33,072 bases of DNA, from NCBI GenBank assembly GCA_021161885.1, contig JAGGZS010000066.1:1-33072 (forward strand), given 5' to 3'. The stretch's first letter is position 1. Every line of letters begins with the position of its first letter. Made by a program: the position numbers and the translations under genes. The DNA is from a bacterium (GTDB taxonomy: Bacteria; Auribacterota; Auribacteria; Auribacterales; Auribacteraceae). Shown here piece by piece: positions 1 to 33,072 of the stretch. A model generated the notes under the pieces. That model was not told where the DNA came from. It made no database searches and worked only from the letters and a program-made list of their open reading frames with translations.

Positions 1-3000
1 CGATTTCCGCCGCAATAGCGGTTCCGTTTAAATTTTTAACTGTCACATCAAACGATGTGGTTGATTTGTTCGATACAATGACAACTCCGTCAGTACCGTC
101 GGTTATTGTGCAAACAACTTTCGGTACAGCGGTAAATGTTTCTCCATAAGATATTGTTTTTCCTGAACTCGGGATTGATACATCTCCTCCGTAAACAACT
201 ACTATGTCCGGTGATAAAAACCCGACGATTAAAGAGTATAAGTAAATGTTGTAACTGGAGTTTGAAGTGTTCCATAGAAATTTCAGTTTAACGTACCGTG
301 CCGTATAAACCGTAGACGTGCTTATATCCGCAAAAGATGTCCATGTTGTACCGTCTGATGAATACGATATCTGAATAGTAAAAGTTTGGGAATTTGCGTC
401 AACTTTACCGATTACGGATGACACCTGAAATTCCGTGACAGTTTTTAAATCGAAATCTCTTTGCATCTCAATGCTGCCCGACGTTTCAAAATTATCATCC
501 AGTACAAAGTTACCGTCATTGATTAATGCTTGCCAGGTTTTGCCCAGGTTCTCCAATTCCTGCCATGTTTGTTGAGTAGCCAAGGCAAACACCGGCCGGA
601 CATAATTACGCGAAAAATCAGCCCGATAATGAACATCAATATTGTTTGTTTTAAGATGAAACGGGTACTCAGAGAACAAATCAAATTCTGTAATAAACCG
701 TGACGTATCTTTTAACTCAACATCAATATCATCATAAGATGCCAGAGCCGATTCGTTACCTGATGTATCCACAGCTTTAATCAGGTAGCGAATATTCCCC
801 AATTCAGATACCGGCAACAAGATGGATGTTGTCCTTACATCTTCAACTACAGTTACCGCATCGGTTTCCCAATCAGACCCTTTTTTTATTTTGTAATGGG
901 ACAAATCTATATCAGCTACACCATCCCATGTGAGCTGAAGATTTGTTCCTACCTGCTGAACATCAAAATTCCGAACATTTTCCGGCTCAGCGGATTTCCC
1001 GACGATCGTAATATCTGCATAAGGACTGTTATCAATCGCATTCTGCGCTCCGTCTTTACTTACAGACACAACGGCCACACGATAAGTCTGTAAGTCGGCA
1101 AACTCATCTATAATGGCAAAATTAACTCCATACGTTTCTCCGATTTGCTTCCATGTACTTCCCTCATCATTCGATAAGAATATCCGGGCTTTCTCATATG
1201 TCTTCAGATAATAATCACCTGGGCTGGTCGGTTTCTGAAACCAAGCCGTAACCTTGGTTGATACAGTCCCGTCAAGTTCCTTGAACAATTCTTCAGATAA
1301 AACAAGGTTTTCTATATACGGTATCATACTGTTAAGTGCTGAATAATTTCTGTCCGGTAAGGTTAACCCTGAATCGTCATAAATACGTTCATCATATGTT
1401 CTGGCTGTTATTTTTACTTCGTTCTTATTGTCCCGTTCAATCTTGATTATTCTGGCTGGATAAACAACTTTATTGTTCTCTCCGAACGCGTATATGTCGA
1501 AATCCTGAGGGATTTGCGTGAAACTGTCTGATAAGTTTAACTCGTTATAAGTTCCGGGACTATTTGTTACAGTTCGTTCTTCCGTAGTATCGTCGCTGAA
1601 AGTTACTCTGAGTTTATATGTTTTGCCGGATTCAATAATAACCTCGTCATCAAGTCGGATTCGGTCTTTACCAAGCGAATGAATATACGCAACATTTTCT
1701 GCGGTCAGTTCATAATCATATATTCTTACATCATCTAAATGCCCGGATAATATCTCGCTTGACGCCGTTACATCTATCGCGCCTATTGTTAAACCATACG
1801 ATGTTATTTGAATAGACGATTTAGTTGTATTTTTTGTTTCTTTTAGAACACCATTTACATAGAAATTTACTTTTTGATTAACACTATCAAAGACAACAGC
1901 TATATGGTACCATGTACTGTCAAACGTCAAATAACTGTTATCCGTTCGAATAACATCATAACTTCCGTCGTTTAAAAGTAACCATAATTTACCGTCATTA
2001 TTTACACGGAACCTGTATGCTAAATTAGTTTTAGAAACTATGTTATAATGATTATCAGGTGTGGAATCCGTTAATTTCACCCAAGAGGATATACTCAGAC
2101 TACCTGTAATGTTACCGTTATTTCCACAATCTATATAACTGTTGCCATTAAATGCAAGCGCCGTATTGATTTTACCGGCTACACTATTTTCTGCGGTATA
2201 TGAACTACCTGACTTGTTAGTAAAAACAGCATTGTTGCCGTTCTCTTCAACAACAACAGCGTTATCCGCGTTATCATCCATTTTATAATGAAGTAATGCA
2301 TCGGCAGGTATAGTTCCTAATTTTTTCAGCCTGCCAGAGAAACCGTATTGAGGCACATCATGCGATATGCCTATCACATCGCCGGGTTGCGATATAACCG
2401 CATCAATGCCCGCTTTGAACGATATGGTTTTATCATGATATTTAGCCGCCCGTATAGCGTACCGTCCTTCACGAACCGCCTGCGATAATCTGGTACATGT
2501 AAGGCGTATTACTTTTTTTCGGCGGGGGACTATTTGCTGACCGTTTGAATCGTAAAGTACATCTTTATCTTCTATCTCTACACTATCTTGTTTATAATCG
2601 TTATCTTCATCCATAAACTGAACTTCAACAACATTTATTTTTTCTTTCTTAGATACCCAAGTTTGCTCGAACTCATTTATAATATTACCCATTCCGTATG
2701 TTTTGAAAACCTGATTCGGATCTTCTTGTTTATCTATTTTCAGATGAATCGCGCCGGCTGAATAATAAGCCATACCCCGAAACGAGGCGGATAACTGGGC
2801 TATAACGTCAAGTACTTTAGTTGCGGAATCAAGTACTGCGTCAAGTTTAAACAGTTTCTCGTAACCGCCGTTTCCGTCCGGCGTTTTCGTATCACAATAC
2901 TGTGCCATCTCAAGCAAAAGATCGTTGTTCAGCGCGGATACGTTTATGTAATCGCCTACTCCGTATACATCATTGGTGAGCAGGTCTTTTATTATCCAAA

Positions 3001-4345
3001 CAGGATTAGACGAATATTTGTTAACATAACTTGAACCGTCCCATGTTAACGCCGTATCATCTGAAAACAATTTGTAACATTCACTGTCTGCGTCCCAGTA
3101 ATAATCGTCGTAATCCACTTCAGTTGAGCCGTTCATTACTTTAGGCTGTGATACTTTTCTTTTTGCTATACACGTTACATTCGGTTCGGTATTGTTCAGC
3201 TGTTCCGTAGCAAGAAATCTGAGACCTAACAAAGCTCTTCCGGTATAAGCAAGTGTGATATCTCTTATTTCATCTATTGCCTGAACTCTCATTGCGCCTG
3301 AAGCAAGCTCATTGTCCACTCCGCCGGTTTTTATGATTCGAATATCATATTTATCCGGCTCAAGCCCTTCCTGCCTGTATATTCTCCGAACAGCTGATCT
3401 CTGTTTTGCGCTTATCGTATAAGAACTGTTTCCGTTCATGTAAGACCATGTTGAAGCACTATGCTTTTTGTATTCTATCGTGAATGTCACGGAATGTGTT
3501 GTTATGCCATTGAAATCAGGTTGCTGTACCTGAATATATAATCCGTTCGGACATGTGATATACACTTCGAATGCGTCTATATCGCTTAAACTTGTTGTGT
3601 ATGTAACACCAGGTCCGTTTATTTCAATATCCACTCCGATAGGGTTCACATGGTGTGTCTGATCAAAATAAGGAATGACACTTTGATCAGCTGTACCATA
3701 TCGCTTGAAAATCTCAACGCCGCTGAAATTAGAGACGGGATTATCGTTTATAAGTAAATCGTCTATATATTCAAGTTCCCCTTCACCAAGGCAAATAAGC
3801 ATATTGAGATAATTTTTGTCCCCGTCGGTAGATATGTACTGGTTGATTTTGTTGCCTCCGACACGATGTTTACCGAGCACAATTCCTACAGGTACACCTG
3901 TTGAGGCAATAAGAGTGATTCCGTCCCATCCGTAAGTAGGGCTACCGTCTTCAATACCGCCTGTATGCGATAACCCGTGACTTGCCTGGCGAGGTCCGGA
4001 AGTAACGGCTGAATAAATAGAATACCCGACAGAAGCCATTGCTATCCCGATATATATATACGGAGCTGCCGCTGCCAACGCTGAGGTAATCGGAGCGAGG
4101 ATCGTGCCGGCAGTCAAAAAAGCAAGAAAACCTAATTCTACATCCGGTGTAATTATAATCTCGTCATTATTTTCAAGTGTCCGCGACATGTCCGCGACAA
4201 CTTCACCACCTATAATAATTTTCTGATCTTCAAGATCATAATCCTTCAGATAATCAGATAACTTTTTACTGACATCAAACTCAACTTTTTTAGTTGACCT
4301 GCCTTCATTGCTTAATATATTCGGGATAACCTTAATTGTAATCAT
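1..4345 (-). CDS. Host-specificity/central tail fibre protein, lambda J-like, with an N-terminal lambda I-like segment fused in frame; 3' end lies beyond the window (more than 1448 codons)
   Basis: My translation from ATG at 4345 is open all the way to position 1; it is absent from the ORF track only because it is partial. The N-terminus is MITIKVIPN...IIITPDVELGFLAFLTAG... followed by a hydrophobic stretch, then VPVGIVLGKHRVGGNKINQYIS, which parallels lambda gpI (VLPVLYGEMRVGSRVVSQEIS). Then come J-like blocks: NPVWIIKDLLTNDVYGVG...AQYCDTKTPDGNGGYEKLF parallels lambda J NMAWCLWDMLTHPRYGMG...GQYCDQSVPDGFGGTEPRI. The start overlaps the upstream K-like gene by 14 nt. Confidence 0.9.
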   Translation of the reverse strand, partial: MITIKVIPNILSNEGRSTKKVEFDVSKKLSDYLKDYDLEDQKIIIGGEVVADMSRTLENNDEIIITPDVELGFLAFLTAGTILAPITSALAAAAPYIYIGIAMASVGYSIYSAVTSGPRQASHGLSHTGGIEDGSPTYGWDGITLIASTGVPVGIVLGKHRVGGNKINQYISTDGDKNYLNMLICLGEGELEYIDDLLINDNPVSNFSGVEIFKRYGTADQSVIPYFDQTHHVNPIGVDIEINGPGVTYTTSLSDIDAFEVYITCPNGLYIQVQQPDFNGITTHSVTFTIEYKKHSASTWSYMNGNSSYTISAKQRSAVRRIYRQEGLEPDKYDIRIIKTGGVDNELASGAMRVQAIDEIRDITLAYTGRALLGLRFLATEQLNNTEPNVTCIAKRKVSQPKVMNGSTEVDYDDYYWDADSECYKLFSDDTALTWDGSSYVNKYSSNPVWIIKDLLTNDVYGVGDYINVSALNNDLLLEMAQYCDTKTPDGNGGYEKLFKLDAVLDSATKVLDVIAQLSASFRGMAYYSAGAIHLKIDKQEDPNQVFKTYGMGNIINEFEQTWVSKKEKINVVEVQFMDEDNDYKQDSVEIEDKDVLYDSNGQQIVPRRKKVIRLTCTRLSQAVREGRYAIRAAKYHDKTISFKAGIDAVISQPGDVIGISHDVPQYGFSGRLKKLGTIPADALLHYKMDDNADNAVVVEENGNNAVFTNKSGSSYTAENSVAGKINTALAFNGNSYIDCGNNGNITGSLSISSWVKLTDSTPDNHYNIVSKTNLAYRFRVNNDGKLWLLLNDGSYDVIRTDNSYLTFDSTWYHIAVVFDSVNQKVNFYVNGVLKETKNTTKSSIQITSYGLTIGAIDVTASSEILSGHLDDVRIYDYELTAENVAYIHSLGKDRIRLDDEVIIESGKTYKLRVTFSDDTTEERTVTNSPGTYNELNLSDSFTQIPQDFDIYAFGENNKVVYPARIIKIERDNKNEVKITARTYDERIYDDSGLTLPDRNYSALNSMIPYIENLVLSEELFKELDGTVSTKVTAWFQKPTSPGDYYLKTYEKARIFLSNDEGSTWKQIGETYGVNFAIIDEFADLQTYRVAVVSVSKDGAQNAIDNSPYADITIVGKSAEPENVRNFDVQQVGTNLQLTWDGVADIDLSHYKIKKGSDWETDAVTVVEDVRTTSILLPVSELGNIRYLIKAVDTSGNESALASYDDIDVELKDTSRFITEFDLFSEYPFHLKTNNIDVHYRADFSRNYVRPVFALATQQTWQELENLGKTWQALINDGNFVLDDNFETSGSIEMQRDFDLKTVTEFQVSSVIGKVDANSQTFTIQISYSSDGTTWTSFADISTSTVYTARYVKLKFLWNTSNSSYNIYLYSLIVGFLSPDIVVVYGGDVSIPSSGKTISYGETFTAVPKVVCTITDGTDGVVIVSNKSTTSFDVTVKNLNGTAIAAEI

Positions 4346-4742
4346 TTTTTATCCTGTAAAAACCATGTATCCTGTTTTTAAAATCATTAAACCGGCTAAC
4401 AATAACCCCTGACTTAACAGCACAATGAATAAACCGACCGCGCGACAAAATTAAACCGGCATGATTCGCTATACCTTTACTGTTTTCAAGCAATACAACA
4501 TCGAACCTCTCAGCCCGTGAAACTTGTTTCCATTGCAGATAATAATGTTCTAAAAAATAATTTTCGCCTTCTGATCCCCAATCTTTTTTATAATCTATTC
4601 CGGGATCGTAAATCTGATATCCTAAATCAGCAAAAACCAATTTCAAGAAACCCCAGCAATCAAGCCCGTCTCTTGTTCGTCCTTTGTGTTTGAACGGTAT
4701 TCCTAAATATCTTCTAATCAGTTCATTCTCAGAAAGCGTCAA
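4332..4742 (-). CDS. Tail-associated NlpC/P60 cysteine peptidase (lambda K-like, P60 domain only)
   Basis: Catalytic Cys context GLDCWGFLKLVF and downstream His (NHAGLIL...FIHC). Position between the L-like and I/J-like genes. TTG start overlapping the L-like stop (GCTTGA). Confidence 0.8.
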   Translation of the reverse strand: MTLSENELIRRYLGIPFKHKGRTRDGLDCWGFLKLVFADLGYQIYDPGIDYKKDWGSEGENYFLEHYYLQWKQVSRAERFDVVLLENSKGIANHAGLILSRGRFIHCAVKSGVIVSRFNDFKNRIHGFYRIKNDYN

Positions 4743-19731: not shown

Positions 19732-21033
19732 TTATACTTTTACTAATTCAGCTTTTTCTCCTGTAAATTCTTCCCATCTTTGAACTGCTACATCACAAAA
19801 CACAGGTTCCAGTTCCATTGCAAACACACGACGATTAAGCCGTTCACCAGCGATAATCTGCGAACCAGACCCGGAGAACGGTTCATAACAAATATCACCA
19901 GGTTGAGTATGTACTCGCATCGGTATAGCGAACACTTCGGTAGGTTTGACTGTCGGATGTTCTAATCCGGGATTACGTTTTTTGCCTTCCCAGTCCAGTT
20001 CCCATACATCAGAATAGTAGTCCGGTGACGCAGGGTCGCCTGATTTAAAAAAATCTACACGCCAGACCGTACCGATAGATTTGTCTTTCGGTTTATACGG
20101 CGGTTTACTGCCTTGAACCCACATAAGCAAACAAGGTTCGTGTCGCCATGAATAAAACGAATAAGTAAGTATCGTACACGGTTTCACCCATATAATCTGC
20201 TGGTGTACCAAGATATTCAGTTCGTCGCATACTTGCTGAATTTCATGGCGTCGTTTTGATGCGTGCCACAAATACAAGGCCGTATTCTCTTTAATCACTT
20301 TTAACCCAACGCTATAAAAATCTTTGATAAATTTACTCGCATCAGGGATATCAACTTCATGGTATACACCTGACCAGTCTTTACCGCCGTTCGGTCTGTC
20401 TTTACCGGTATAATCAACACAATACGGCGGATCAGTAGCAAACAGTTTTGCCTTTTTACCATCCATAAGCCGAGCGACGTCATCCTCATTAGTGCTGTCC
20501 CCGCACAATAGACGATGGTTGCCGAGAATCCATAGATCGCCCGGACGGGTAATCGTTTCTTTTGGTGGTTCGGGAATATCGTCCGGTAATGTTTTTCCGC
20601 ATCCTGTATTTTCTTCCTCAAAATCTTTAAATGAATCTCTTAATTCGTTTAATCGAAGGTCTAAATAATCCTCATTCATCTGTTGTCGGAGTTCTTCCAG
20701 TATAGGAATTAAAGCTTCTGTGAAAACTCCCTGTATCTCAATATTATTCAAAGTAACATTAAGTAATCGTTCATGAATACTGTCTACATCAAGTAAAATA
20801 ACCGGTATCTCCTGAACATTCGCTTCTTTTAAAACTTTAAAACGCTGATGACCGCCGATAATGGACATATTTCGTTTATTAACGATAATCAGATCAATGT
20901 AGCCGAATTTTTCAAGGCTCTTTTTTAATCCCGTTAAAGCCGGATCGGATATTTGCCTTGGATTCCATTTTGCAGATTTTATATCCGATATTTTCAACTG
21001 CATAATTTCCGGTTTTATGTCTATTTTTGCCAT
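19732..21033 (-). CDS. ParB-like nuclease domain fused to a DNA methyltransferase (N6-A/N4-C, beta class)
   Basis: N-terminal ParB/Srx-type block (NPRQISD...IIGGHQRFKVLKE). DPPY motif (LFATDPPYCVDY) and a C-terminal SAM-binding block EPFSGSGSQIIAGERL. Confidence 0.85.
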   Translation of the reverse strand: MAKIDIKPEIMQLKISDIKSAKWNPRQISDPALTGLKKSLEKFGYIDLIIVNKRNMSIIGGHQRFKVLKEANVQEIPVILLDVDSIHERLLNVTLNNIEIQGVFTEALIPILEELRQQMNEDYLDLRLNELRDSFKDFEEENTGCGKTLPDDIPEPPKETITRPGDLWILGNHRLLCGDSTNEDDVARLMDGKKAKLFATDPPYCVDYTGKDRPNGGKDWSGVYHEVDIPDASKFIKDFYSVGLKVIKENTALYLWHASKRRHEIQQVCDELNILVHQQIIWVKPCTILTYSFYSWRHEPCLLMWVQGSKPPYKPKDKSIGTVWRVDFFKSGDPASPDYYSDVWELDWEGKKRNPGLEHPTVKPTEVFAIPMRVHTQPGDICYEPFSGSGSQIIAGERLNRRVFAMELEPVFCDVAVQRWEEFTGEKAELVKV

Positions 21034-28826: not shown

Positions 28827-29056
28827 TAAGCCACCCTCAATAAATACTTTTTGAGCCTCTGTAAATCGCTCGGTGAAATAAATAAATTTTTGCCTCTTGA
28901 TTCAGGATTAAGCCTCAACCTCCGAACCTTAATGATTCCCGCCTTCTGCCACCTCGGCCACCACTTGATAAATGTTGAATACTTAATCCCCACGTACTCC
29001 GCACCCTCTTTCATTGAATAAAATCTGGCTTGAGTTACCTTGATCACGTAAATCAC
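28826..29056 (-). CDS. Small HTH protein (excisionase/MerR-like HTH_17 type), GTG start
   Basis: FYSMKEGAEYVGIKYSTFIKWW...ISPSDLQRL follows the excisionase-family DNA-binding pattern. GTGA overlap with the cro-like stop. Confidence 0.5.
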   Translation of the reverse strand: MIYVIKVTQARFYSMKEGAEYVGIKYSTFIKWWPRWQKAGIIKVRRLRLNPESRGKNLFISPSDLQRLKKYLLRVA

Positions 29057-29328
29057 CCCCTTTCCATAATTTCGTATTGATACATATCATCCGCTTTTAT
29101 TCCTGTAGCCAAAAAAAGCCTTTTCTGCATCTCCAGAGTAGGCTCTTGTTTTTTGTTCAATAATCTTGAGACAGTAGCGTCGCTAACCCCGATTTCAATC
29201 GCAAACCCGTTCTGTCTTAAATTTTTCATATCAAGATATTTTTTGACGGTTTGTTTATTAACGAAAATGCGTACATTATCTACACGCACCCCTCTGATTT
29301 TTCCTGCTTTCCTTCGGTATCTCCTCAT
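29053..29328 (-). CDS. Cro-like XRE-family HTH repressor (first gene of the early operon)
   Basis: LRQNGFAIEIGVSDATVSRLLNKKQEPTLEMQKRL HTH. Strong SD AAGGAGAG. Divergent from the CI-like gene. Confidence 0.75.
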   Translation of the reverse strand: MRRYRRKAGKIRGVRVDNVRIFVNKQTVKKYLDMKNLRQNGFAIEIGVSDATVSRLLNKKQEPTLEMQKRLFLATGIKADDMYQYEIMERG

Positions 29329-29566
29329 ATACTCTCCTTTTGTTATAAATAATAACTTTTACTTACGTATTAAATGTAAATTTTAGATCAAAAAAATATC
29401 ATTAGATATGCTGGCATATTTTTACCTATACTTAGATATTTTTAGCTATTATGGAAATAAACTTACATCACATAATAAAATAAAGTCAATAAAAATTTTC
29501 ACTGCAATGTAAAATTTTCTTTTATTAAGTATGAAATTTAATTATATTTTACATATGGAACGTAAA
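29329..29566. promoter_or_regulatory. Immunity switch region between the cro-like and CI-like genes, containing several inverted repeats (candidate operators)
   Basis: 202-nt AT-rich divergent intergenic region. Contains TTAC-N9-GTAA at 29363-29379 and TTTAC-N9-GTAAA at 29548-29566. Contains overlapping palindromes ATATC-ATTA-GATAT (29396-29409) and ATATGC-TG-GCATAT (29406-29419). TTAGAT recurs at 29383, 29402 and 29432. Confidence 0.5.
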
Positions 29567-30253
29567 TTTTATCTTCGATTATCAAACTTAATAGAGCTTT
29601 CCAGTCAGACGAAACGATATTTTTCTAAGGCTATCGGAATGCACGAAACACACTTTTCAAGCATGTTGAAAGGACGCTTAGTCCCCCCGCCTTACGATCA
29701 GTGTGTAAAGTTGCTTGATGAACTTTCTAAATACGTTAATATTTCACCTGAAGAAAGAGAAGAATTTCTCCGCCTTGCCGGAGAAGAGAGGATCCCTGAC
29801 AAAGAAAAACCTTTTATCCCTCACGTAATAAAGTCAAAACCAATAAGAATAGAAGATGTAGGTATCCCAGTGAATAAAGTTCCTTTCATTCCTATGGAAA
29901 AGGTGTATAATATATACACAACAAACAACTTAGACGAATGCGCGACCGAGTATATGATCTCTCATCTTGGGTATAACGATCTGTTTACGACAAAAGTAAC
30001 CTGCGATTCTATGTTATACGAGTTTCGCCCTGGTGAGATTGTGTTTATCCGCACAAAACTGCTTTATAAAAACGACGACTATGTCATAGCTATTGATCTT
30101 GAGAGTAAAGAATCTTTCCTGCGGCAGTACAAAGATTACGGAGAAACCAAAGTTTTAAGACCCCTCAATCCCGCGTTCAAAGAAATATTTTTTGATAATA
30201 AAAGGTATAAAATAGTAGGTCCTGTCATCGGTAAATTTACATCGATGGGGTAA
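29531..30253 (+). CDS. CI-like repressor: N-terminal HTH plus C-terminal S24 (LexA-like) autopeptidase domain; alternative start at 29555
   Basis: HTH LIELSSQTKRYFSKAIGMHETHFSSMLKG. C-terminal VTCDSMLYEFRPGEIVFIRT (Ser block) and ...FLRQYK... (Lys block). Divergent from the cro-like gene. Confidence 0.8.
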   Translation: MKFNYILHMERKFYLRLSNLIELSSQTKRYFSKAIGMHETHFSSMLKGRLVPPPYDQCVKLLDELSKYVNISPEEREEFLRLAGEERIPDKEKPFIPHVIKSKPIRIEDVGIPVNKVPFIPMEKVYNIYTTNNLDECATEYMISHLGYNDLFTTKVTCDSMLYEFRPGEIVFIRTKLLYKNDDYVIAIDLESKESFLRQYKDYGETKVLRPLNPAFKEIFFDNKRYKIVGPVIGKFTSMG

Positions 30254-30298
30254 CGACCTGACCAAAGATGAAAAAACATTAAATGCTGAGGTGTTCTC

Positions 30299-30700
30299 AT
30301 GAAAAAACTGCTATTGCTAATCTTATTCGGATATATTGCTGTCAATATATCTTCCTGTTCTGTAATTATGGCGGTACAAAAACCAGAAAAAAAAGATGTT
30401 ACTATTTTTCAAGAAGGAATGCCCCGTAATATGATACTTGCTGAATTCGGTCCACCCGTATCATCAGATATAAATAAAAATGGAAACAAAGAAGAAATGT
30501 GGACGTTTGATAAAGGTGAATCTAAGTGGTGGAAAGGTTTAAGAGCGGTTTTTCATACAGCTGCAGATGTCTTTACACTTTTTCTTTGGGAAGTTGTTGC
30601 CATACCAACGGAGTTAGCATTAGAAAAGAATTCATCCACGTATGTGGTTGAGTTCGATAACGATAATAAAGCTACAAAAATTCAATGTTTGAGAAAATAG
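30299..30700 (+). CDS. Lipoprotein (BamE/SmpA-like turn motif; second hydrophobic helix near the C-terminus)
   Basis: Signal peptide with lipobox MKKLLLLILFGYIAVNISS-C. EGMPRNMILAEFGPPVSS. Hydrophobic AVFHTAADVFTLFLWEVVAIP. SD GAGGTG. 45 nt after the CI-like stop. Confidence 0.7.
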   Translation: MKKLLLLILFGYIAVNISSCSVIMAVQKPEKKDVTIFQEGMPRNMILAEFGPPVSSDINKNGNKEEMWTFDKGESKWWKGLRAVFHTAADVFTLFLWEVVAIPTELALEKNSSTYVVEFDNDNKATKIQCLRK

Positions 30701-30728
30701 AGATATAATACTTCATCAGAGGTCAGCC

Positions 30729-31745
30729 ATGAAAAAAACATTAGCCATACTGTCACTATTTTTTCTTGTATTCACTTGCCCTGTGTTTCCTGATCAAACT
30801 GTTGATGAATACGTATCGAAAAAAATACAAGAATCCTATAAAAATATTAAAAAAAACGGTAATTTTGCTTTATTATGTTTACCTGGTACTCTTGAATTTG
30901 GTATTGCTGGTAATTATAATACATGGCAAGAAAAACGATTTGATAATAAAAGAATACTACAAGAAATAGACACCTTAAAAAATGAGACAAACAATAATAT
31001 TTACATTGTTATACAAGTCTCTTTTATAGGCGATGCAACTGGTGACGAAATAAAATCATTAAAAATTCCTAAGGATATTCAAGATTATATCTTTTTAGAA
31101 AATAACAACGGTCTGTTTATTCGATGCAGTAAAGCAGAAATCTCTGGATACAATTATACAGTTAATCAATTTACAGATCACATTCAAATAGCACTAAAAT
31201 TCCCAACAATCCACCCAGAAACAAACGAGTCTATCTTCAATGATACAGAAACAATAAAAGTGATTGTCGGCGGTTTAGGGTTTGAAGATCACACATTCGA
31301 ATATAAACTACCTCTCTCTGATTACTACTTAGACGCCCCGGACGTACTAAAAAAACTCTACTATGAATCAGGTATATGGGAACGCGAAAACGAGTCTCAG
31401 GTTATCGTGGATTCTAATCCAGATCCACAGCCTGCAGAAAAGAAAACAGAACGCGATTACCAGGAACAATGGGCGAGGGAACACGGTGCTAAGATTGAAG
31501 TACAATTGCGTGACGGTACCAGGGTAGATTGTTTAACCGATACGCACGCCATAGAAGTTGACTTTGCTCGTAAATGGACTGAGGCGATCGGTCAATCAAT
31601 GCATTATTCCAGGATGACCGGCAAACGTGCCGGCATTGTTCTGATAATAACAGACCCAGACGACATGAAATACTGGGATCGGCTGAAAAAACTAATAGAG
31701 CACAGCGGTCTGCCGATCGACACGTGGAAGCTCGAGGATTATTGA
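30729..31745 (+). CDS. Exported or membrane-anchored protein with a C-terminal PD-(D/E)XK-like (restriction-endonuclease-fold) domain candidate
   Basis: N-terminal MKKTLAILSLFFLVFTCPVFPDQ. C-terminal about 100 aa: KIEVQLRDGTRVDCLTDTHAIEVDFARKWTEAIGQSMHYSRMTGKRAGIVLIITD. The 3' third of the gene is markedly GC-richer than the 5' part. Confidence 0.6.
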   Translation: MKKTLAILSLFFLVFTCPVFPDQTVDEYVSKKIQESYKNIKKNGNFALLCLPGTLEFGIAGNYNTWQEKRFDNKRILQEIDTLKNETNNNIYIVIQVSFIGDATGDEIKSLKIPKDIQDYIFLENNNGLFIRCSKAEISGYNYTVNQFTDHIQIALKFPTIHPETNESIFNDTETIKVIVGGLGFEDHTFEYKLPLSDYYLDAPDVLKKLYYESGIWERENESQVIVDSNPDPQPAEKKTERDYQEQWAREHGAKIEVQLRDGTRVDCLTDTHAIEVDFARKWTEAIGQSMHYSRMTGKRAGIVLIITDPDDMKYWDRLKKLIEHSGLPIDTWKLEDY

Positions 31746-31764
31746 TTTAAAGAGAGAATATATA

Positions 31765-32211
31765 ATGAGCTATTTGGATCCATTTGAGCATTCTTTTATG
31801 AAACACACTTTATCCATTATTGAAAAGTACAAGGGTGAATATGGTGCCACTATACTAATCAATTGTCTTCTTGGCCTACTTGTTCTGCCAAAAGAAGAAT
31901 TCATAACACTCATTCCTGAATGTAAAATAGCGGACAATATAGATCAATGGGGTATAACATTCACAAGTATAGAATCAACAAGTACTTCAAGAAAAGCGAA
32001 TCTTCATCCTAATACAATACGAGGTTTTGTCATTGATCTACGGCATGCTATTGCCCATTTTAATATCGAACATGTCACTATTGACAACCAACTTGAAAGT
32101 GAGGTAGTTGCTTTTGAATTCACTAATGACCATGGTTTTAAAGCGAACCTTAAATTAGAAGAGTTACGTGCGTTTGTTACGAAATTAGCGCAACATCTTG
32201 ATAGAAGCTAA
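31765..32211 (+). CDS. HEPN-domain protein candidate (Rx4H motif)
   Basis: 148 aa, helical, IRGFVIDLRHAIAHFNIEH contains R-x4-H. 19 nt after the preceding gene. Confidence 0.55.
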   Translation: MSYLDPFEHSFMKHTLSIIEKYKGEYGATILINCLLGLLVLPKEEFITLIPECKIADNIDQWGITFTSIESTSTSRKANLHPNTIRGFVIDLRHAIAHFNIEHVTIDNQLESEVVAFEFTNDHGFKANLKLEELRAFVTKLAQHLDRS

Positions 32212-32329
32212 AAATTTAAAATTACCTGATTACCGAGCATCTACAGTAACGTCTATCCCCTCGCAGTAGGCATGGTCATTATATGAAGGTTAATTTTTGA
32301 ATCTAAAATAGGCTAAAAAGGAGGCAATT

Positions 32330-32542
32330 ATGGTCAGTAATAAAAAATTTCAAAAACACTGCAGGTTTAAAGGAAGAAAGGTTACTTTATCTCAAAAAGC
32401 TAATACAGAAAAAGGAAGTGACAGGATAATAGACTACACTCCTCCAATATGTGAGGATAAAACGTATGATTGTTATAATAAATTTGATTGTGAGTATGCT
32501 TCAGGTGGAATAGGCGGAAGAGGTAGTAAAAATCCATTTTAA
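32330..32542 (+). CDS. Hypothetical small basic protein with four Cys
   Basis: 70-aa ORF with a strong SD (AAAGGAGG, 6-nt spacer). No recognisable motif. Confidence 0.45.
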   Translation: MVSNKKFQKHCRFKGRKVTLSQKANTEKGSDRIIDYTPPICEDKTYDCYNKFDCEYASGGIGGRGSKNPF

Positions 32543-32644
32543 ATTAAACATAAAAGAATTATATAGTTTGTGTGATATTAAATTTTTTGATAAAATAGAG
32601 GCAACGACTATACAAAAATTTGATTCATGAAAAGGTATTTGAAT

Positions 32645-33072
32645 ATGAATAAACAAATTGTTGCCATTGATTTATTCTGTGGAATAGGCGGATTGTCGCA
32701 TGGATTACAAAAATCAGGTATTGAAGTTATTGCCGGATTTGATTCAGATCCTTCTTGCAAATATGCCTACGAGGCAAACAATAATTCAAAATTTATTGAA
32801 AGAGATGTTGCCGAAATAACCGCTAAGGAACTCAAGGCATTATATCCTCCCGGGTCAATAAAAATTCTTGTGGGATGTGCTCCTTGTCAAACTTTTTCAA
32901 AACATACGTTAAAAAATAAAAATCGCGAAAAAGACAAAAGATGGGGACTATTATATCATTTTTTAAGATTAATTACTGAGGTCAAACCCCATTATGTTTC
33001 TATGGAAAATGTTCCGCAATTAAAAAAATACGATATTTTTACAGATTTTATTCAAGGATTAAAAAATGAACA
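32645..33072 (+). CDS. DNA (cytosine-5) methyltransferase, 5' part (continues beyond the window)
   Basis: My translation from ATG at 32645 is MNKQIVAIDLFCGIGGLSHG (motif I), ILVGCAPCQTFS (motif IV catalytic Cys, PCQ) and VSMENVPQL (motif VI ENV). Not in the ORF track because it is partial. Confidence 0.85.
   Translation, partial: MNKQIVAIDLFCGIGGLSHGLQKSGIEVIAGFDSDPSCKYAYEANNNSKFIERDVAEITAKELKALYPPGSIKILVGCAPCQTFSKHTLKNKNREKDKRWGLLYHFLRLITEVKPHYVSMENVPQLKKYDIFTDFIQGLKNE

Follow-up and report, generated by a model that had tools for sequence, protein, structure and literature searches.

Probable cargo genes for predicted exported proteins and a HEPN protein behind a phage repressor, and a phage-borne domain family with a predicted restriction-endonuclease-like fold

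Results

A co-oriented gene block follows the repressor of a tailed-phage genome

The stretch of DNA analysed here, referred to below as the window, is the whole of contig JAGGZS010000066.1 (33,072 nucleotides) from a bacterium of the Auribacterota (assembly GCA_021161885.1), and our subject is the block of + strand genes that starts with a phage repressor and runs on through a lipoprotein, a 338-aa exported protein and a HEPN protein. The - strand remainder of the window is a tailed-phage genome with a terminase (phrog_15, 7e-193), a portal protein (phrog_21), a tape measure protein and an exonuclease. The + strand set consists of four open reading frames (ORFs) at 29531-30253 (240 aa), 30299-30700 (133 aa), 30729-31745 (338 aa) and 31765-32211 (148 aa), all of which are real genes and not chance ORFs, given the family matches or homologues found for each. 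Their features are as follows, with structural confidence taken from AlphaFold2 (AF2) models as the predicted local distance difference test (pLDDT).

29531 to 30253, + strand: cI/LexA-like repressor with a C-terminal S24 autopeptidase domain, from Pfam and PHROG
30299 to 30700, + strand: 133-aa lipoprotein of a large unnamed family, with lipobox I-S-S-C (Cys20), weak similarity to BamE in its N-terminal half and the conserved segment FHxxADVFTLxLWE
30729 to 30779, + strand: predicted export signal of the 338-aa protein (MKKTLAILSLFFLVFTC), a signal peptide or atypical lipobox (hydrophobic residues 1-23)
30786 to 31307, + strand: rare beta-rich N-terminal domain of the 338-aa protein, residues ~20-193 (AF2 pLDDT 50-84)
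31308 to 31448, + strand: linker of the 338-aa protein, residues ~194-240, probably disordered (AF2 pLDDT <50 for residues 194-235)
31449 to 31745, + strand: C-terminal restriction-endonuclease-like domain of the 338-aa protein, residues 241-338 (~95-98 residues), assigned from an AF2 model, 72-sequence conservation and 287 IMG/VR relatives
31765 to 32211, + strand: 148-aa HEPN protein, PF18736 (pEK499_p136 family), with Rx4H at 32041-32058

The repressor matches Peptidase_S24 at 5.1e-11 over residues 147-233 (Pfam), the phrog_4 transcriptional repressor family at 4e-18 and the CI-like repressor family phrog_6201. A preliminary description of this DNA had read the three genes behind it as one candidate exclusion or defence module in the position that rexA-rexB hold in phage lambda. 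The tight spacing on which that reading drew is borne out by the ORF list, with gaps of 45, 28 and 19 nt between the four genes, and the Shine-Dalgarno (SD) sequences GAGGTG, AGAGG and AAGAGAG can be seen upstream of the ATG codons of the lipoprotein, 338-aa and HEPN genes. The gaps also appear free of terminators, as had been stated: a consensus scan of 29000-33072 returned three terminator-like sites, all of them intragenic, a number that is not above chance (2.2 expected in shuffled sequence). Predicted folding of the 118-nt spacer 3' of the HEPN gene is not stronger than that of shuffled sequence, and Rfam, tRNA and terminator searches of the block gave nothing meaningful.

The C-terminal domain of the 338-aa protein recurs downstream of phage repressors

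The 338-aa protein is built of four parts, namely the export signal, the beta-rich region, the low-confidence linker and the C-terminal domain (C-domain). We found 29 relatives of it; two of these (P0002 and P0003, 39-42% identical) share the N-terminal domain (N-domain) and lack the C-domain, while in the others the similarity is confined to the last ~95 residues. In IMG/VR, a pattern scan recovered at least 287 relatives of the C-domain, and 80 viral C-domain loci were fetched, with neighbourhood counts made over 71 distinct loci. The usual family member in the 80 fetched loci is 115-135 aa long and consists of an export signal followed by the domain alone, the signal ending either in an AxA site (e.g. 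...LLWA|GHLHPE) or in a lipobox (LLASC, MGVAC). Compared with such a member, the window protein carries an extra N-terminal region of 220 residues and has Ala in the place of Cys249.

Repressors and regulators are common among the genes upstream of the C-domain gene. Among the 135 neighbours formed by the two nearest upstream genes of the 71 loci, the most frequent PHROG families were phrog_4 (10), phrog_8 (9), phrog_6201 (7), phrog_2328 (7) and phrog_3 (5); five of the top six families are repressors or regulators, the other being the unannotated phrog_8436, and UmuD-like neighbours count 4. With our own hidden Markov models (HMMs), an S24 repressor was found one to three genes upstream on the same strand in 11/71 distinct loci and a tyrosine integrase one to two genes downstream in 7/71. 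The recurrent layout, seen for example in L014, L018, L019, L022, L029, L041, L078 and L088, is a leftward cro-like gene, a rightward cI-like gene, up to two small genes, if any, for membrane proteins, secreted proteins or lipoproteins, the C-domain gene and then the integrase, where the genes between cI and the C-domain gene are homologous neither to each other nor to the lipoprotein of the window. Two cultured temperate phages also carry the domain in a gene annotated as hypothetical: in phage NrS-3 of Nitratiruptor (Campylobacterota) the gene, NrS3_34, lies ~1 kb from the annotated repressor, and in Rhizobium phage RR1-A the gene, RHXG_00034, adjoins the integrase; both products are family members of ~120 aa. 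The rexAB-like position noted in the preliminary description thereby gains independent support, since in other viral contigs a cI-like repressor of the same orientation recurrently lies one to three genes before the C-domain gene, which is often followed by the integrase. This positional argument is right and extends beyond the phage of the window, for the C-domain gene and not for the three-gene unit.

Small secreted proteins with a GCCSHHGGVCGC motif adjoin the C-domain gene in three viral loci (L015:6294-6560, L019:5666-5926 and L056, gene -1). Two metagenomic C-domain proteins contain a GRTDxxGGH/YHYH motif, and 12/29 have a Cys-rich C-terminal tail (C[RK]YY...C..CGG); P0008, P0019 and P0010 are among the proteins that show such features. 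These neighbours and tails suggest a recurring metal- or Cys-rich partner module.

The C-domain is predicted to share the core topology of the PD-(D/E)XK superfamily

The AF2 model of the C-domain, computed for residues 236-338 alone with 27 homologues, has a pLDDT of 96.9 and a predicted TM-score (pTM) of 0.88. Its secondary structure runs a-bbb-a-b-a-b (H6-17, E20-24, E30-34, E38-44, H45-62, E65-72, H75-91, E95-101), so that the alpha-beta-beta-beta-alpha-beta core topology of the PD-(D/E)XK superfamily is present in the predicted model. In an alignment of 72 non-identical sequences, the invariant or near-invariant residues are E241, Y244, Q245, W248, C249, G254, E257, R265, D267 and C268 in the first half of the domain and T270, A274, E276, D278, F279, K282, W283, E285, G288, Q289 and Y293 in the second. 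D267 and E276 occur in 72/72 sequences, D278 in 68/72 and K282 in 69/72, with Q289 and Y293 near-invariant, and the window protein keeps E241, Y244, Q245, E257, D267, T270, E276, D278, K282, W283, Q289 and Y293. Cys249 is found in 68/72 sequences and Cys268 in 70/72, and on sequence grounds this pair fits a putative disulfide in an oxidising compartment.

Sequence searches placed the C-domain in no established family. There was no match in Pfam and none to PDB sequences in a profile search, both read down to E<=10, and none in PADLOC or NCBIfam; among the PHROGs only phrog_5928 appeared, at an E of 0.007 that is too weak to use. A Foldseek search of the full 338-aa model against the PDB returned only noise (diphtheria toxin, FNR), because this multi-domain model is of low confidence; the result was rejected and the search repeated with the C-domain alone. 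The weak structural neighbours then obtained from the PDB were FAAP24 (TM 0.52) and ERCC1 (TM 0.44), both of the ERCC4 type, and YaeQ (TM 0.46). In BFVD, the model has one true homologue, a protein of Salicola phage SCTP-2 (40% identity, TM 0.94), followed by proteins of giant viruses that bear the label 'KilA-N domain-containing' (E 1e-6 to 1e-7, TM 0.74-0.83, 19-29% identity) and, after these, by weak matches to 'endonuclease-like', endonuclease I, ERCC4 and Vsr models. We did not adopt the KilA-N label for the C-domain, as it was assigned by automatic annotation and a KilA-N signal is absent at the sequence level.

The preliminary description had likened this domain to a PD-(D/E)XK or RecB-type core with a QxxxY helix. 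The likeness holds for the predicted fold and for the conserved D, E-x-D, K and QxxxY residues; it does not extend to the canonical motif or to a significant family or structure match. As no established family claims the C-domain, we keep the nuclease assignment at the level of the predicted fold.

An uncommon N-terminal domain, an export signal and a linker precede the C-domain

The two N-domain homologues P0002 and P0003 have classical signal peptides, SFA|Q and SLA|D, in line with the predicted export of the window protein, and the N-domain itself has no family match. Export signals had been proposed for both the lipoprotein and the 338-aa protein, and the N-terminal sequences of the two products support this prediction. 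An idea modelled on SNIPE-like mimicry, in which the 338-aa protein would be a paralogue of the tail proteins of its own phage, was dropped after a similarity search found no such relationship.

The lipoprotein belongs to a broad family

The N-terminus of the 133-aa protein, MKKLLLLILFGYIAVNISS-C20, fits a lipobox, and its hydrophobic segment covers residues 3-26 by hydropathy. Cys20 is invariant in a 48-sequence alignment of the family, and the signal sequence together with this Cys confirms the lipoprotein assignment made earlier. Besides the lipobox Cys, the residues G51, P53, D90, E98 and E105 are invariant in the 48 sequences, whose consensus contains GCSVxMA...GTPRxxVIAExGxP...FHGxADVFTLGLWExVGTPxE. 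An extra C-terminal hydrophobic helix (AADVFTLFLWEVVAIPTEL) had also been described; this segment falls below a transmembrane-like hydropathy score and is instead the most conserved segment of the family.

An exhaustive profile search gave 1054 cluster representatives at E<=1e-3, 510 of them at E<=1e-10. The closest relative (P0072, 48% identical), which was the sole match of a word-indexed search, adjoins an IS110 element and unrelated small ORFs. We found no Pfam family for the lipoprotein, the BamE match of E 0.12 being too weak to use; weak BamE-like matches occur in 6/48 members, and caspase or trypsin domains are present in some of the long members.

The HEPN protein is a member of the pEK499_p136 family

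The 148-aa protein matches PF18736 with 75.8 bits (cut-off 26.6, E 3.9e-21) over profile positions 3-144 of 152, and R93 and H98 of its RHAIAH motif are invariant in 22 HEPN homologues. It is a true member of this family, as the earlier reading of a HEPN-type protein with Rx4H implied. The three proteins had also been described as not mappable to any named system: this stands insofar as none of them has a PADLOC match, and it fails for the HEPN protein, which maps to the pEK499_p136 family defined by Anantharaman et al. in 2013 (PMC3710099). Some members of that family lie in operons with restriction-modification (R-M) genes, ART/Macro genes, a NamA-like nuclease or Pgl components (PMC3710099). 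We found no PADLOC match for the HEPN protein, no solved structure for the PF18736 family and no experimental function for the pEK499_p136 family.

The homologues at 45-55% identity come from Planctomycetota and Burkholderiales metagenome-assembled genomes. In Planctomycetota, the close homologues lie between an unknown 236-aa gene on one side and a 107-aa gene with a two-domain PLD nuclease on the other, and in another lineage the gene follows an HNH_5 protein; these PLD- and HNH_5-flanked loci (L005-L007 and L008-L010) may be small local defence islets. When the four nearest genes were clustered over 76 genome loci, no partner shared by the close homologues emerged. A two-gene 'nuclease + HEPN' system, suggested by the HNH_5 and PLD neighbours, was rejected, because the close homologues share no neighbour family and the 338-aa protein is predicted to be exported.

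The only recurrent theme, among more distant HEPN members, is the Type I R-M system, with five HsdR, four HsdM and three HsdS neighbours by Pfam counts over the 76 loci; Type I R-M neighbours occur in ~5/76 genome loci. L147:3646-8372 reads HsdS, HEPN, HsdR, and L144, L145, L164 and L165 also have HEPN between hsdS and hsdR, the slot of the anticodon nuclease gene prrC in EcoprrI. No HEPN relatives were found in IMG/VR (pattern scan), in 50,697 phage records or among PLSDB plasmids. Within the limits of these searches, the HEPN gene is unusual in a phage because viral collections yielded no other.

The three families co-occur in no fetched locus outside this element

To follow the block as a unit, we searched the six-frame ORFs of all fetched loci with our own HMMs, one each for the lipoprotein, N-domain, C-domain and HEPN families. 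The loci were those around 80 viral C-domain genes and 86 HEPN genes, those of the lipoprotein and N-domain relatives, and two phage records. Matches to the four HMMs co-occur only in the window and in L001-L004, four short contigs that belong to the same element and are 100% identical to it. The proposal that the three genes form one system is therefore not supported: at the family level they are not conserved as neighbours, which had been named beforehand as a finding that would refute it. The families also have separate distributions, with 1054 representatives of the lipoprotein, 287 viral loci of the C-domain and 90 genome loci of HEPN, the last with none found in viral sets.

Flanking genes and the rest of the window

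The block had been described as ending at 32211 with the HEPN gene, but it goes on with a 70-aa ORF and a C5 DNA methyltransferase. On its other side lies a divergent regulator.

29053 to 29328, - strand: 91-aa Cro-like helix-turn-helix (HTH) regulator, divergent from the repressor (phrog_1373 at 4.9e-07, phrog_4, phrog_8)
29329 to 29530, no strand: AT-rich divergent intergenic region with several imperfect inverted repeats
32330 to 32542, + strand: 70-aa Cys-rich ORF (AAAGGAGG), with a strong SD and no family matches
32645 to 33072, + strand: N-terminal 142 aa of a C5 cytosine DNA methyltransferase, whose gene runs past the window end (PF00145 3.9e-32; PADLOC MTase_II 4.2e-36; phrog_116 1.2e-36)

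The intergenic region 29329..29530 is presumed to be the genetic switch with its promoters and operators, and promoter-like matches within it are not above shuffled expectation. The C5 methyltransferase starts 433 nt downstream of the HEPN gene, and the window ends before any restriction gene. In a sister contig from another sample (L001:1454-2591, window ~32437), an IS630-like element with a DDE_3 transposase and HTH_29/32 follows codon 36 of the 70-aa ORF and takes the place of the methyltransferase side; the stretch around this ORF is plastic, as judged from this insertion sequence (IS). Exact-match searches of metagenomes with a 35-mer of the methyltransferase, and exact-protein look-ups of the 338-aa protein and the 70-aa ORF, gave no close relative of the phage; only short contigs of the same element turned up.

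Elsewhere in the phage, a ParB-N-terminal domain fused to a DNA methyltransferase is encoded at 19732-21033 on the - strand (phrog_498, 1.5e-105), which makes it a second methyltransferase besides the C5 enzyme. One open frame of at least 1449 codons occupies window positions 2-4348 on the - strand and runs off the window start; its product is probably a tail fibre or host-specificity protein.

Discussion

In our reading the block is the 'moron', or accessory, end of a temperate tailed phage's lysogeny module, made of separately acquired cargo and not of one co-evolved machine, and we put the probability of this reading at about 0.6. The cI-like repressor is followed by co-oriented cargo genes that are probably carried on the same transcript. 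The lipoprotein, from a broad bacterial family, would be placed in the envelope, and the C-domain would act in the lysogen's periplasm, either as a metal-dependent nuclease or by binding DNA. Its target may be DNA that enters the cell, from a superinfecting phage or by transformation, and the rare N-terminal domain could target or anchor the 338-aa protein. The HEPN protein, in turn, may be a latent cytoplasmic RNase that aborts infection, possibly tied to the methyltransferase downstream. The analysis itself establishes the gene models, the family memberships, the predicted fold, the export signals, the recurrent position and the lack of co-occurrence; co-transcription, the periplasmic location, the nuclease and RNase activities and any protective phenotype are inferred. 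Non-homologous precedents for such a function are the exported DNases of mobile genetic elements (PMC12378983) and SNIPE (PMC13190303), both discussed below.

Several points weigh against this reading. The cI-linked layout accounts for only ~15-30% of the viral loci, the remainder lying in unrelated contexts, and the gene calls in the fetched loci are crude longest-ORF calls. The catalytic signature of the C-domain is a variant one, with Asp278 at the canonical Lys position of (D/E)xK and Lys282 four residues further on. The Foldseek search of the C-domain against the PDB gave no significant match to a solved nuclease (best E 0.085), and its strongest non-homologous structural matches are the KilA-N-labelled proteins, KilA-N being a DNA-binding and not a catalytic domain. 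Moreover, the window copy has Ala at residue 249 (31473-31475) and keeps Cys268, so that the family's presumed disulfide is missing in it. As for separate acquisition, absent co-occurrence is not proof of absent functional interaction in this phage, and a blastn search of 29300-33072 against phages found no close relatives in which synteny could be compared, nor did searches for the 338-aa protein and cI in IMG/VR and for the exonuclease in JGI metagenomes.

A further-reaching proposal, which we offer only tentatively and give a low probability, is that the C-domain represents a new, widespread class of prophage-encoded periplasmic enzymes of the restriction-endonuclease fold, expressed with the repressor, that would destroy or hold DNA in the periplasm. 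Such enzymes would form a location-based, sequence-independent self/non-self barrier in the envelope against superinfecting phages or transforming DNA, and with the targeting domain, the lipoprotein neighbour and HEPN as a backup the block would amount to a layered defence operon on the cI transcript. With respect to the PD-(D/E)XK superfamily, including RecB/Cas4-like QxxxY proteins and minimal domains of ERCC4 or VRR-NUC size, the C-domain is alike in the a-bbb-a-b order of the predicted core, in the invariant Asp on strand 2, in Glu-x-Asp on strand 3 and in Lys, Gln and Tyr on the next helix, whereas it differs in lacking a significant sequence or structure match, in having Asp278 for Lys, and in its predicted export, which is unusual for the superfamily. 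SNIPE (PD-lambda-1), a GIY-YIG nuclease bound to the membrane, cleaves phage DNA while it is being injected; its DUF4041 and GIY-YIG domains both face the cytoplasm (PMC13190303). The 338-aa protein resembles it in concept, as an envelope-held nuclease-like domain with a variable N-terminal targeting region that would meet incoming DNA only; in contrast to SNIPE, to which it has no homology, it has no DUF4041 or GIY-YIG match in Pfam or PADLOC, its fold is different, and its signal or lipobox predicts a periplasmic location. The periplasmic HXS system provides a functional precedent that is not homologous (PMC13128918).

The C-domain protein could instead have nothing to do with phage exclusion, being a periplasmic nuclease directed against transforming or extracellular DNA or a non-catalytic envelope factor of lysogenic conversion. 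A nuclease of this kind might guard the prophage from curing by recombination, or contribute to nucleotide supply or biofilm remodelling. The export signals, the conserved Cys pair, the conserved acidic residues and the placement in the lysogeny module are all consistent with such a role. There are also precedents among periplasmic or secreted DNases of mobile genetic elements that destroy incoming DNA, namely Dns of CJIE1, CJE0566 and CJE1441 in C. jejuni and IdeA and SxnA in V. cholerae, which block natural transformation (PMC12378983), and C-domain family members occur in phages of Nitratiruptor (Campylobacterota). Those DNases resemble the 338-aa protein in being exported, nuclease or nuclease-like products expressed, here presumably, from a resident prophage or integrative and conjugative element; they are, however, DNA/RNA non-specific or EndA-type endonucleases, while the C-domain family has a different predicted fold and its activity is a prediction. 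We consider this alternative unlikely: the C-domain has no homology to EndA/NucM-type DNases, and the positional evidence fits superinfection exclusion just as well.

Another possibility, which we regard as improbable, is that the HEPN gene, the 70-aa ORF and the methyltransferase form a separate small R-M or defence islet, either as inserted cargo or as host flank beyond the prophage end, unrelated in function to the two envelope genes and with HEPN as a PrrC-like guard of the adjacent modification or restriction genes. PrrC, the anticodon nuclease of the EcoprrI Type Ic R-M locus, is a large protein in which HEPN is fused to an ABC-ATPase. Distant pEK499_p136 genes sit in the same slot between hsdS and hsdR, which suggests a latent RNase guarding the R-M system; the window protein, by contrast, is a bare HEPN domain beside a C5 methyltransferase and not beside a Type I system. 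It is a typical member of its family in its full-profile match, its Rx4H and its stand-alone size of ~145 aa, and atypical in being phage-encoded, directly behind a repressor and predicted exported proteins; its methyltransferase neighbour would agree with the reported occurrence of the family 'in operon with R-M genes' (PMC3710099). Also in favour of the islet are the IS in the 70-aa ORF of the sister contig, the integrase that directly follows the C-domain gene in other phages, and a HEPN family not found in viral collections. Nevertheless, only 19 nt and no terminator separate the HEPN gene from the end of the 338-aa gene, the R-M neighbours are confined to the small fraction of genome loci given above, and the sequence up to the window end at 33072 shows neither a restriction gene nor an integrase or att site.

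Like lambda rexA-rexB and sieB-type genes, the cargo genes lie directly downstream of cI, co-oriented and presumably expressed in the lysogen. RexAB consists of a cytoplasmic sensor and an inner-membrane ion channel, whereas the block encodes two predicted exported proteins and HEPN with no conserved pair or triplet, and none of the three proteins has a PHROG, Pfam or PADLOC match to RexAB. One new multi-component exclusion or defence system, in which two envelope proteins would act as sensors or effectors and a cytoplasmic HEPN RNase would receive their signal or serve as backup, is highly doubtful: the short gaps, the individual SDs and the terminator-free spacing do suggest one operon with cI, and all three products, unmatched in PADLOC, are plausible defence parts, but their families co-occur nowhere else in the fetched loci and are distributed separately, other phages have non-homologous genes between cI and the C-domain gene, and the close HEPN homologues have unrelated neighbours (HNH_5, PLD, unknowns).

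Many exclusion and defence functions are encoded by prophage genes that share a transcript with the repressor, and the block is a further example of this known kind. The HEPN family has already been catalogued; what is new is an unannotated C-domain family with hundreds of copies on viral contigs, with export signals and with a recurrent slot between cI and the integrase. The family is easy to test because the domain is only ~95 residues long, has a high-confidence model and offers obvious candidate catalytic residues. If it is a periplasmic nuclease or DNA trap, it would constitute a barrier that acts by location and meets incoming DNA on the periplasmic side, complementing SNIPE at the cytoplasmic face and the periplasmic HXS system, and, if true, this would provide an annotation for many phage genes that are now called hypothetical.

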